A stretch of 31,690 bases of DNA from a bacterium (GTDB lineage Bacteria > JAMCPX01), in assembly GCA_027364825.1 (NCBI GenBank), contig DAHXOM010000283.1:1-31690 (forward strand). The letters are read 5' to 3'. Positions 3,999 to 14,819 of the stretch are shown here, one piece after another. Both the position numbers and the translations under genes were made by a program. Position 1 is the first letter of the stretch; the number at the start of each line of letters is the position of its first letter. The notes under the pieces were generated by a model. It saw only the letters and a program-made list of their open reading frames with translations. It made no database searches and was not told where the DNA came from.

Positions 3999-5654
3999 TT
4001 AACCGCATACACCGCAGAGAGTGCATGTATCAGGCCTGCATACAGGGGTAACAATACCTTTCATGCCTAATTTATATTCCTTGAGCAGAAAGTCCTTTTT
4101 AAATCCGTATTCTATAAAATCCCACGGCAACACCTCATGACTGCGTCTCTCTCTGAATGCATAGTTCTCAATATCAATGCCGCTGTCATGGAGGGAACGG
4201 CTCATGGAGGTATCGGTCTTTGACAGGTACACAAGGAACTCCGAAAGGCGCCTGTCCCCTCTGGAAAGAATCGCCTGAAGCAGATAATGCTTCTCCCATT
4301 CAATCTTTATGCCGCTGGATTTTAATGCTTTTTTTACGGCGTTCAATTTATTTTTGAGTTCGTCCGGTTTTATTACCCCAAGCCATTGAAACGGAGTAAA
4401 AGGTTTCGGTATCAGCGGATTAATACTGATGCTCAACCTGCCCTTTCCTGCATTCAATGCCTCTTTGATCCGGATCGAAAGCCCTGCAATGGCTTCGATA
4501 TCTTCATCCGTTTCACCGGGTATGCCTATGAGGAAGTATAGTTTTAACGTATTAACGTTATACCCGCTGAGGAACCTTGCAGCTTTCAGGATCTGCTCAT
4601 CGCTCAACTGCTTATTCAGCACCCTCCTCAACCGGTCAGTACCTGCCTCAGGCGCAATAGCAGCGGAGAACTGATCCGTTGACATCTCGATTTTATTCAT
4701 GTCGAGCAGTGCAAGACTGTCGGCACGCATGGACGACATGGATGCCTTCAGACCGATGGAATGGATATAATCCAGCAGTTCTTGAAGATACGGGTACTCG
4801 GTGACCATGGGGCTGACAATGCCGACCCTCCTGACGCCCGCGGGCAGGGACATCAGATCGTCTTGTAAATCTTTTAACGGCCTGTGCCGCGGCGGCAGAT
4901 AAGCATATCCCGATATACAGAATCTGCACCGGTACCCGCAGCCCCGTGAGACCTCCTGGAGGTGGATACCGGAGAATGTCGTATCGTCCGTATAAACAAC
5001 GGTTGATGAGACGCGGTTCGACAGAGGCGCCAGGTGACGCCTGACCTTTTTCCCTTTTTTGAATCTACGATCCATGCCCTCGAGTCTGCCGTCTGCTCTA
5101 TACCGGACATCATAGAAGGAAGGGACGTAGACACCCTCATGCTCATCCAGCTCTTTCAGGATAAACGCCCTTGCCTGCCGTGCGGTAAGATTTTTATGGA
5201 TAACATCCATGACATCTTCCACGAGGCCTTCCGCCTCGCCGATGACGCAAACATCCATAAATTCGGCAATGGGCTCGGGGTTCAGCGTTACTGCAATGCC
5301 TCCTGCCATGATCATGGGACCGTGTGTCCGCCGTGATGCGTACAGTTCTATGCCCGATGCCCTGAGGAAATCGACCACATTGATATAATCCGTTTCAAAA
5401 GAGATTGAAAAGGCAATAACGGAAAAATCGGTTATCTGCCTGCCGCTCTCTATGGATACCGGTCCTTCCTTACCCTTTCGCCAAAAACACCTTTCACAAA
5501 CGACCGTATCCCTGTTGTTCAGGATGCCGTACAGGGTATGGACCGCAAGATTACTCATGCCCGCCCTGTAGGTGTCCGGGTAAACGAGCAGGACAGGAAG
5601 TTTGCCGCCCCATTCCTTTTTAATCGCACCTGATTCACGGTGCATGGTCTTCAT
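3999..5654 (-). CDS. Radical SAM protein with a B12-binding-like N-terminal region and C-terminal Cys cluster (TIGR03960/COG1032-like)
   Basis: CX3CX2C motif RGCGYRCRFC, APEAGTDRLR, LYFLIGIPGET and C-terminal CRPDTCTLCGVC. Start placed at MKTMHRE (5654) rather than 5717, which is a judgement call. Confidence 0.85.
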   Translation of the reverse strand: MKTMHRESGAIKKEWGGKLPVLLVYPDTYRAGMSNLAVHTLYGILNNRDTVVCERCFWRKGKEGPVSIESGRQITDFSVIAFSISFETDYINVVDFLRASGIELYASRRTHGPMIMAGGIAVTLNPEPIAEFMDVCVIGEAEGLVEDVMDVIHKNLTARQARAFILKELDEHEGVYVPSFYDVRYRADGRLEGMDRRFKKGKKVRRHLAPLSNRVSSTVVYTDDTTFSGIHLQEVSRGCGYRCRFCISGYAYLPPRHRPLKDLQDDLMSLPAGVRRVGIVSPMVTEYPYLQELLDYIHSIGLKASMSSMRADSLALLDMNKIEMSTDQFSAAIAPEAGTDRLRRVLNKQLSDEQILKAARFLSGYNVNTLKLYFLIGIPGETDEDIEAIAGLSIRIKEALNAGKGRLSISINPLIPKPFTPFQWLGVIKPDELKNKLNAVKKALKSSGIKIEWEKHYLLQAILSRGDRRLSEFLVYLSKTDTSMSRSLHDSGIDIENYAFRERRSHEVLPWDFIEYGFKKDFLLKEYKLGMKGIVTPVCRPDTCTLCGVCG

Positions 5655-5769
5655 ACTACCACTATAATCAGATAAACTATTCCAGCGCAACAGGCAGTAA
5701 TCAGACAATCTCCCCATAAGAGCATTTAAAAAAAGAAGTTTTGTGAAATGAACATGGAAGATGAAAGAA

Positions 5770-5953
5770 AAAAAGGAAGAGTTTGATCCGAAGTGAAGAG
5801 AAACACCTGCGAACTGCCTGGTATTCTTTCATAGTATTCTGCGTGGACTGCTTCTCGTCCCTAGACAAAGATAAAATAGCTCGATAGGTCAAAAAACCCG
5901 TTTAGCAAAAAGAGCTATTGTTTCACGAACGGAGGAGGAAACTCTTCCTTTTT
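5770..5953. repeat. Dispersed ~185-bp inverted-repeat element, family R, copy 1
   Basis: Perfect 15-bp terminal inverted repeat AAAAAGGAAGAGTTT / AAACTCTTCCTTTTT. The first 89 nt match 14026-14114 at 78/89 positions by hand alignment, and a second shared block CCGTTTAGCAAAAAGAGC lies near the 3' end. Confidence 0.88.
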
Positions 5954-5981
5954 CCAGAAAAATGCATTCTGATACTTCGAA

Positions 5982-6563
5982 TTAACCGATCTCCTCGATT
6001 GTAATACCCAAGGCGCCTGCTTCCAGCATCTGCTCGACCGCAAGTTCACTGTCCTGTGGATGGACATTGACGCCCCGTGATGCGTCCCGAAGGAACAATA
6101 CCGTGAAACCGGCCTTGAGCGCATCAAGCACCGTGTTCTTTACACAGTAGTCTGTGGCTAGACCGCCGACAAATACCCTCCTCACCTTCAGTCTCTGAAG
6201 CATGGATTTTAGTCTTGTCCCCTGAAACCCGGAATACGCCTCTTTTCCCGGGGTGGTTGCCTTTGATACTATACCTGCCGACCCGGGAAGCTTTAGTTCC
6301 GGATGAAATTTCGCACCGTCTGTTTCTTTGACGCAGTGTACAGGCCATATTCCGCCGTATGCTTTGAACGAAATATGATTTTCCGGATGCCAGTCCCTTG
6401 TTGCAAAAACAGGGAGGTATTTTAAACCGAACTTGTCCATATAACGGTTTAATACCGGAACGACCGTATCCCCTTCCGGAACAGCAAGAGAACCTCCCGG
6501 GCAGAAATCCCTCTGCACATCTACAACGATAAGAGCATCAGCCTTTGAAAGCTTTAATTTCAT
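5982..6563 (-). CDS. pncA: Nicotinamidase/pyrazinamidase (isochorismatase family)
   Basis: ALIVVDVQRDFCPGGSLAV, TRDWHP..H, WPVHC, SK...AYSGF and GLATDYCV give the Asp-Lys-Cys triad and metal ligands. Start placed at MKLKLSK (6563) after a purine-rich tract. Confidence 0.92.
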   Translation of the reverse strand: MKLKLSKADALIVVDVQRDFCPGGSLAVPEGDTVVPVLNRYMDKFGLKYLPVFATRDWHPENHISFKAYGGIWPVHCVKETDGAKFHPELKLPGSAGIVSKATTPGKEAYSGFQGTRLKSMLQRLKVRRVFVGGLATDYCVKNTVLDALKAGFTVLFLRDASRGVNVHPQDSELAVEQMLEAGALGITIEEIG

Positions 6564-12930: not shown

Positions 12931-13026
12931 CCCCGTTAGAAAATTTGTGGATTCAATAGTGTCCTGGTCTGAGCGTTTAACAACGGCACAGTATCCGCAT
13001 GAAACAACCGGAATTTTCTAATGGGG
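12931..13026. mobile_element. MITE-like 96-bp element, family M, copy 1
   Basis: Terminal inverted repeat CCCCGTTAGAAAAT / ATTTTCTAATGGGG (13 of 14 complementary). Its reverse complement matches 31472-31566 with 8 substitutions and 1 indel. No ORF inside. Mobility is inferred. Confidence 0.72.
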
Positions 13027-13101
13027 TAAACCTTTAAACGTTCTTATTGCATTTTCCGCGGCTCATTGATAATTTCCTTGTCATACAAAGGAGAAAAAAG
13101 T

Positions 13102-14019: not shown

Positions 14020-14025
14020 CCCGAA

Positions 14026-14212
14026 ACAAAGAAAGAGTTTGAGACGAAGCGAAGAAAAACACCTGCGAACTGCCTGATATACTTTCATAGTATGCTGCAT
14101 GGACTGCGTCTCGTTCAACGTCAAAAAAATACACCATGCATTTTGTAATGACCATTCCGTTTAGCAAAAAGAGCGTTGTTTTACGAGCAGAGGCGAACAA
14201 CTCTTTCCTTGT
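14026..14212. repeat. Dispersed ~185-bp inverted-repeat element, family R, copy 2
   Basis: Ends ACAAAGAAAGAGTT / AACTCTTTCCTTGT (13 of 14 complementary). Homologous to 5770-5953 and in the same orientation. Sits between two convergent stop codons. Confidence 0.88.
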
Positions 14213-14231
14213 GATAAGCAAGGAAATGAGC

Positions 14232-14819
14232 CTACAGTGCCTCTCTCATCCATTTTACGATCGGGATCAGCAGAAACGGCGCAATGATCACACCCATGCC
14301 GTACAGTGCATACGCTACATTGCTGGTAAGAAATGCCGCGCCGTCATACATGCCGTGAGACCACAACCTGCCTCCATGCGTTGAAGCATCATACAGGAAC
14401 CTCTGCCAGCCTGTGCCGTCCCAGCCGTAGATAAGAATAAAAAACATGAAAAAATATCCGATAAGCACCTGGCTCCACGCAGCCTTGAACCTGCCTTTCT
14501 GGATAAACTTGTAAGCAACCCAATAACCTAAAATGCCCTGCGTAACATTGGTAACGGCAAAAACGGTCACCAGCCACGCCGGAATAGCAGCATGTGATAC
14601 AGCGACCTGCATGGTTTCCCATTGCGGGAAATCCCAGAGCAGATATATGCCCGATGGTGCAAACAGACATGCCAGAAAGAGTACCGTGTAAATAAAATAC
14701 TTGCTGGTATACCAATCTTTCCCCTTGGAAACATCATATTCCTTTTTCAACTGCCTTGCAGCTGAAGCGGCAAAGCCTGCCCCAATCGCGTACGACCAGA
14801 ATACATCCACCTGAACCAT
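14232..14819 (-). CDS. Uncharacterised integral membrane protein, about 5 transmembrane helices, 195 aa
   Basis: SD AGGAGG upstream of the ATG at 14819 (MVQVDVFWSYAIG), five hydrophobic segments, polar motifs DFPQWETMQ, TNVTQG and GWDGTGWQRF. Confidence 0.75.
   Translation of the reverse strand: MVQVDVFWSYAIGAGFAASAARQLKKEYDVSKGKDWYTSKYFIYTVLFLACLFAPSGIYLLWDFPQWETMQVAVSHAAIPAWLVTVFAVTNVTQGILGYWVAYKFIQKGRFKAAWSQVLIGYFFMFFILIYGWDGTGWQRFLYDASTHGGRLWSHGMYDGAAFLTSNVAYALYGMGVIIAPFLLIPIVKWMREAL

Follow-up and report, generated by a model that had tools for sequence, protein, structure and literature searches.

Structured intergenic repeats are common, and selection on their folds is rarely clear. 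In the Bacillus cereus group, the bcr1 repeats, which are about 155 bp long, are dispersed between genes, and their distribution is not conserved between strains. They are transcribed, and their long double-stranded fold is kept through compensatory base-pair changes (PMC3184786). The REP/BIME, ERIC, Correia and RUP/BOX/SPRITE-type repeats are palindromic, intergenic and cotranscribed, and RNA hairpins that serve as terminators or stabilizers have been proposed or shown for them (PMC3184786).

The window analyzed here is the whole 31,690-nt stretch of DNA. It contains two copies of a noncoding module of about 190 nt, for which we use the name E190. Likened by features and not by sequence, bcr1 is the closest known analogue of E190. 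Both are dispersed, noncoding and transcribed, and both form a long duplex with compensated changes. bcr1 differs in that it comes from an unrelated lineage and is itself bounded by 5-bp direct repeats. Such repeats are missing at the closing stem (P1) of E190, which rides in other terminal-repeat vehicles and contains a phased G.A rod and an invariant core.

Like the REP/BIME, ERIC, Correia and RUP/BOX/SPRITE-type repeats, E190 is a structured repeat at gene 3' ends, but it is larger and more complex (a rod plus a multibranch core) and is conserved in place across genera. It shares with REPIN/RAYT systems the hairpin-forming repeat and the strand-specific structure, and the genomes contain Y1 genes. 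E190 does not have the form of a REP doublet, however, and a different repeat accompanies the one RAYT-like gene that was inspected. The E190-containing units of one genome, G011, resemble ISL3-family MITEs. They have GGCTCTT-type ends, 8-bp AT-rich duplications, a length of about 241 nt and no ORF. About 50 near-identical copies are present in G011, and a matching full ISL3 element occurs in the same bacterial family. The likeness ends at the core, which is foreign to ISL3, and two other genomes (G000 and G002) hold about 30 copies each with no ISL3 transposase.

We read E190 as a structured MITE passenger module that acts at gene 3' ends, and we give this whole statement a probability of roughly 0.55. 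That E190 is a structured repeat carried by mobile elements is very probable. A specific RNA role at 3' ends is a tentative part of the reading. E190 would multiply as the core of nonautonomous transposable elements and not as a gene. In genus g4 it lies inside a 241-nt MITE that bears ISL3-family terminal repeats and duplicates 8 bp of its target. For the genus of the window, the enclosing arms are those of M2, a TTAA-flanked palindrome that lands on stop codons. The module would be kept as a folded single strand made of a closing stem, a G.A/A.G rod, an inner stem and a conserved multibranch core. At gene 3' ends, the fold may matter as an RNA hairpin, that is, as a terminator, a 3' stabilizer or a protein-binding platform, and such a role would render the insertions tolerated or useful.

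E190 unites strong covariation, conserved noncanonical pairs, coding-like conservation of orthologues and two different transposon shells. It offers a tractable system in which to learn whether RNA or DNA structures with a function travel as MITE cargo and what binds a phased G.A rod.

Family size and distribution

The window's own assembly (G000) contains 2.46 Mb in 405 contigs and is 87% complete. A covariance model was built from 45 sequences and run over 13 genomes of the phylum. It matched 29 times in G000, 32 times in G002 and 50 times in G011. Eight matches were retrieved from G008, six from G006, three from G003 and two from G010, with a single match in each of G004, G005 and G009. G001, G007 and G012 had none. 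With 29 matches in G000 and 0 to 50 in its relatives, the element noted in the initial annotation is more than a two-copy oddity.

The nhmmer search retrieved 14 canonical full-length copies from G000, together with 5 or 6 long variants that contain a nested hairpin of about 98 nt. G000 also has many fragments, of which several lie at the ends of contigs. Deletion derivatives are common. A divergent subfamily (contigs C14 and C28) has wholly different P1 and P2 (inner stem) sequences and the same architecture. The neighboring genes are unrelated housekeeping genes. E190 accounts for many contig breaks and intergenic expansions in this poorly known mine-drainage phylum.

E190 is confined to one family within a small candidate phylum from mine-drainage samples. 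The window gave no Rfam match at the gathering threshold, in keeping with the earlier view that no known family fits. The best Rfam match at a permissive threshold was a chance one to a lncRNA (22 bits against a threshold of 60). BLAST searches of plasmid and phage collections left E190 unmatched. A pattern scan of JGI metagenomes returned 45 chance matches, and 0 of 45 passed the covariance model. Pattern scans of public genomes found it in one related MAG only, plus chance matches. E190 is a new family, but its kind is already known in bacteria.

Two other readings of the conserved sequence were rejected. A small minus-strand ORF in the conserved block has an ATG start and a frame that are not conserved across the family. 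A sigma-54 reading of the core was dismissed after inspection by eye.

The two copies in the window

Copy A is a full-length member of subfamily 2. It spans positions 5767 to 5956 on the plus strand (nhmmer) and scores 189.8 bits with the covariance model. Its RNA fold has an energy of -52.9 kcal/mol (z = -2.5). The purine-rich 5' arm of the closing stem P1 (5771 to 5783) pairs with 5940 to 5952. It is followed by the 5' strand of the GA rod (5784 to 5797), which contains three GA dinucleotides at 5-nt spacing, and by the 5' arm of P2 (5798 to 5805), which pairs with 5919 to 5926. The core (5806 to 5861) is the most conserved block across four genera. It contains a candidate hairpin, H1, in which 5828 to 5832 would pair with 5843 to 5847. 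The 3' arms (5919 to 5953) comprise P2 (5919 to 5926), the GA rod (5927 to 5939) and P1 (5940 to 5953), all on the plus strand.

Copy B is full length and of the subfamily 1/3 type. It spans 14023 to 14214 on the plus strand (alignment) and scores 195.6 bits with the covariance model. Its P1 arms lie at 14026 to 14039 and 14199 to 14212, and its P2 pairs about 14055 to 14061 with 14177 to 14184.

The likeness between the copies that the initial annotation described was recovered. Positions 5770 to 5858 and 14026 to 14114 are identical at 78 of 89 sites, and a conserved 3' block follows an unrelated center in the alignment of the two. Their closing stems differ in sequence and still pair, as had been claimed, with 14/14 pairs in copy A and 13/14 in copy B, where one A.C mismatch occurs. 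The change on both sides of the inner stem, GAAACA/TGTTTC in copy A against AAAACA/TGTTTT in copy B, also holds up. Across the family, the inner-stem pair at alignment A2 columns 39/171 is A-U in 22 sequences, G-C in 13 and G.U in 8. The reported position next to minus-strand genes was confirmed, with the 3' ends of copies A and B lying 28 nt and 19 nt from the ORF stops at 5982 and 14232. A third pairing had been proposed as well, AATAGCTC/GAGCTATT in copy A and CAACG/CGTTG in copy B. It is present in both copies and unconserved in the other family members, and it overlaps the inner stem. It was rejected as part of the family fold.

Fold and covariation

The fold was obtained from RNAalifold and direct column statistics on the window plus strand. 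From the outside inward, it contains P1 (12 to 16 bp), a U-A pair, the GA rod, a bulged A, P2 (8 bp) and the core. The core consists of the weak hairpin H1 and variable arms. The GA rod is a series of three tandem G.A/A.G mismatches at 5-nt spacing, split by covarying 3-bp Watson-Crick blocks. Columns 26/183, with G-C/U-A, and 33/176, with C-G/U-A/U.G, exemplify the covarying pairs of the rod. The mismatch columns (24/185, 25/184, 29/180, 30/179, 34/175 and 35/174) hold G.A or A.G in 37 to 40 of 45 sequences. Every pair of P1 (alignment A2 columns 10 to 21 with 189 to 200) has changed on both sides somewhere in the family.

Pairing statistics were computed for 60 distinct copies aligned to the model, with 500 shuffles and slid structures as controls. 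Standard pairs occupied 94.8% of cells, against 87.6% in the shuffles. Changes on both sides were found for 21 of 27 pairs, against 7.7 in the shuffles and 6 to 15 in the slid controls. None of the 500 shuffles matched the observed pairing and covariation. The signal is far beyond chance, above all of the shuffles and all of the slid controls. The proposal that the fold and not the terminal sequence is preserved is borne out, be it through selection or through a mechanism. P2 was paired in 98.3% of cells. H1 was paired in 98.6%, but its changes are nearly all one-sided.

G.U pairs outnumber A.C by 17 to 2 in P2 and by 112 to 1 in H1, and the two are about equal in P1 (19 and 21). This asymmetry, together with the G.A tandems, points to folding of the plus strand in the inner parts of E190. 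The symmetry of P1 would fit DNA-level terminal repeats as well as RNA. In minimum free energy the two strands hardly differ.

A kink-turn was considered for the three G.A/A.G tandems and rejected. The tandems have no 3-nt bulge, and Watson-Crick pairs lie on both sides of them. A model in which each copy forms the tip of a larger palindrome was rejected as well: the flanks outside P1 (mean -16.6 kcal/mol) show no greater complementarity than do mismatched pairs of flanks (mean -19.6 kcal/mol).

Insertion sites

Site A holds an inserted block from 5707 to 5981. It contains E190 and M2-related flanking arms of 60 nt on the left and 25 nt on the right. This 275-nt block is missing from a co-occurring strain, whose DNA contig joins 5706 to 5982 with GC between them (depth 3.4 versus 7.7). 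The matches to the flanking genes are 281 nt apart in G000 and about 25 to 144 nt apart in five congeners.

Site B holds an intergenic insert from 14020 to 14231, between convergent genes. The spacing is 212 nt in G000, against 15 to 20 nt between the flanking-gene BLAST matches in G001 and G004. By sequence, the stop codons at this site are about 0 to 5 nt apart in those two genomes. The insert is thus missing in relatives at both window sites. Loss occurs too, and contig C322 of G000 has a 26-nt remnant where G003 holds a full copy. Together with the copy counts in G000 and its relatives, the empty sites agree with the earlier description of a dispersed, probably mobile hairpin element.

The mechanical ORF at 3999 to 5717 probably starts too far upstream. 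Congeners align only from an ATG near 5652 to 5655, and the protein from that ATG begins MKT. On that reading, 5656 to 5981 is intergenic.

Vehicles and mobility

Six units were inspected in G011. They are 240 to 241 nt long, they have a common terminal repeat (GGCTCTTATCCC...), and they contain E190 as their core. Target duplications of 8 bp match at 8/8, 7/8 and 6/8 positions in three of the six units, and the other three have no clear duplication. In G007, a full ISL3 transposase is immediately preceded by a repeat that is identical to this terminal repeat at 22 of 26 positions. G009 has a related repeat next to ISL3 remnants. E190 is taken to be the passenger of the ISL3-type MITE, because G007 has the IS yet no E190.

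The vehicle in G000 and G002 is different. Subfamily 2 copies in these genomes lie between M2 arms, and TTAA borders the unit as a whole. In the G000 copies, no target duplication is seen where P1 ends on the outside. No autonomous IS that shares the M2 or P1 ends was found.

E190 has several traits of a MITE. It is about 190 nt long with no conserved ORF, it is present in 0 to 50 dispersed copies per genome, and it is polymorphic for presence and absence. Terminal repeats common to an autonomous IS were found for the G011 vehicle only. The initial annotation had set the element apart from a classical MITE; that contrast was too strong, as the G011 module is the core of a textbook ISL3-type MITE.

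Conservation in place, orientation and transcripts

Three pairs of copies are syntenic across genera: G000 contig C297 with G006 C190, C215 with G006 C141, and C28 with G010 C15. Between C297 and G006 C190, the element is 75% identical, the flanking coding DNA is 77 to 79% identical and the rest of the spacer is 47% identical. Both P1 and P2 differ between the two copies by changes that are compensated. Contigs G008 C5 and G000 C297 (loci L124 and L121) contain E190 at one intergenic site in opposite orientations, in two genera. This suggests reinsertion or an inversion across the inverted repeats of E190 itself. Gene conversion may occur among E190 copies.

Of the 18 G000 copies with a neighbor, 16 have their 3' end 18 to 81 nt away from the stop codon of a gene encoded on the other strand. 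Nearly all copies face one way relative to the adjacent stop, which orientation-dependent effects would explain. Where the neighboring genes are in tandem, the plus strand of E190 is antisense in six cases and sense in two. One point counts against a 3' untranslated region (UTR) role: the plus strand, which is the better one by noncanonical criteria, is antisense to the abutting gene in most copies, so the 3' UTR of the mRNA would carry the other strand. Copies of E190 show only a weak orientation bias relative to GC skew (18 versus 8). GC skew tracks gene strand (rho 0.85); it was rejected as a proxy for the replication strand for this reason, and the bias is confounded in the same way.

The organism was sampled from mine drainage, and two metatranscriptomes of that study contain it. 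The transcript contigs (Logan) carry no direction. At four loci, these directionless RNA contigs join the 3' part of E190 to the 3' end of the convergent gene. Two of the loci are in the window, at 5954 to 6143 and 14170 to 14414, and the other two are on other contigs and were recognized by their flanks. Over the 12.7 kb examined, RNA coverage is patchy and DNA coverage is even, which argues against DNA carry-over.

An intrinsic (Rho-independent) terminator consists of a G+C-rich hairpin followed directly by a U tract. A terminator scan flags 5931 to 5948 plus TTTTT on the plus strand of copy A. The 3' arm of P1 is U-rich on both strands.

Alternative explanations

E190 could be an independently transcribed, structured small RNA gene on the window plus strand that became multicopy through its capture by transposable vehicles. 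Such an RNA could serve as a protein-binding scaffold on the phased G.A rod. The plus-strand signals (the conserved tandem G.A/A.G mismatches and the excess of G.U over A.C in P2 and H1) are consistent with this. So are the syntenic copies, which are conserved at coding-like levels across genera and have compensated changes, and the presence of one module in two unrelated vehicles. The plus strand is usually antisense to tandem-gene neighbors, as a separate transcription unit would be, and E190 interiors occur in RNA contigs. Those RNA contigs, however, continue into the neighboring gene instead of stopping at E190, and a scan for sigma-70-like promoters found none at either window copy. The range of 0 to 50 copies includes none in a 98%-complete relative, so E190 is not essential, and fragments and deletion derivatives are frequent. 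We regard a small RNA gene as unlikely.

It is just as doubtful that E190 is a functional structured RNA whose phased G.A rod is a protein-binding platform and that was captured and spread by the ISL3-type MITE and M2. If this were true, MITEs would serve to disperse an RNA gene, individual copies of which would be held in place across genera by host selection.

A single-strand-DNA hairpin transposon (REPIN-like or IS200/IS605-like) that is moved in trans by a Y1 HUH transposase is improbable. The full fold on one strand only and the absence of target duplications at the outer ends of P1 in G000 copies would suit it. IS200-like TnpA (at least 95 bits) was found in 5 of 6 genomes with at least 3 copies and in 0 of 6 searched genomes with at most 2, but this co-occurrence is weak evidence because the genomes are kin. 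The initial annotation had raised a REPIN/RAYT origin and a nearby HUH nuclease gene. The genomes do contain Y1 genes, but none of them lies near E190. E190 flanks no Y1 or RAYT gene, and another inverted repeat surrounds the RAYT-like gene of contig C379. In G008, 8 copies occur and no Y1 gene was matched. The ends of the IS200-like elements have nothing in common with E190, and the only recent burst (G011, 50 copies) has DDE-type ISL3 terminal repeats and 8-bp duplications. The weak bias relative to GC skew, confounded as it is with gene strand, counts against this reading too. A derivation of E190 as an IS200/IS605-derived PATE was likewise rejected, as neither the IS200-like loci nor their ends have sequence in common with it.

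Two transposase loci were seen in G000. On contig C379, positions 1072 to 2043 encode 331 amino acids that include a Y1 transposase domain, and the inverted repeat GGGGTCAGCCCTTGACAT/ATGTCAAGGGCTGACCCC lies on both sides. The gene is likely a RAYT with its own REP-like sequence that is unrelated to E190. Contig C333 (617 to 988) encodes a fragment of an IS630-family DDE transposase that adjoins an IS200-like tnpA at the contig end.

Least probable is a functionless DNA palindrome whose compensatory changes come from gene conversion among copies or from template switching within a strand (quasipalindrome correction). The balance of G.T and A.C in P1, the many copies that could convert one another and the near-equal energies of the strands would allow it, but it is weakened by the six G.A/A.G positions, which template switching should erase and which persist beside covarying neighbors, by a nonpalindromic core that is the most conserved part, and by the G.U excess in P2, the coding-like conservation of orthologous copies and the strong orientation bias toward stop codons.

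M2 and other repeat modules

M2 is an abundant motif of about 30 nt (TTAACCCGAAAAATGCAATAGGGAAGTTTG) with at least 83 copies genome-wide. In the window, it occurs at about 13035 to 13055 (minus strand) and in the flanks of copy A (5707 to 5766 and 5957 to 5981). Its start coincides exactly with the TAA that ends the gene upstream in about 25 cases. Inward-facing pairs of M2 form TTAA-flanked palindromic units. Their members are 84 to 372 nt apart with no ORF between them, and they enclose various repeat modules. M2 resembles a second MITE family, or a terminator-like one, that targets TTAA.

A further hairpin module lies at 12931 to 13026, just past an FtsX-like gene. Its arms, CCCCGTTAGAAAATT and AATTTTCTAATGGGG, are 66 nt apart. 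The same module is the 98-nt insert of the long E190 variants (C215, C342, C42 and C398), and it also occurs elsewhere in the genome. The gene ends of this lineage are unusually modular and rich in repeats. More repeat families are present in 3' intergenic regions of G000 contigs C155, C216, C226, C87 and others. Among these are an element of the form GTCATTGCGAGGAG...GAAGCAATC and runs of units similar to AACGGTTTAAAC.
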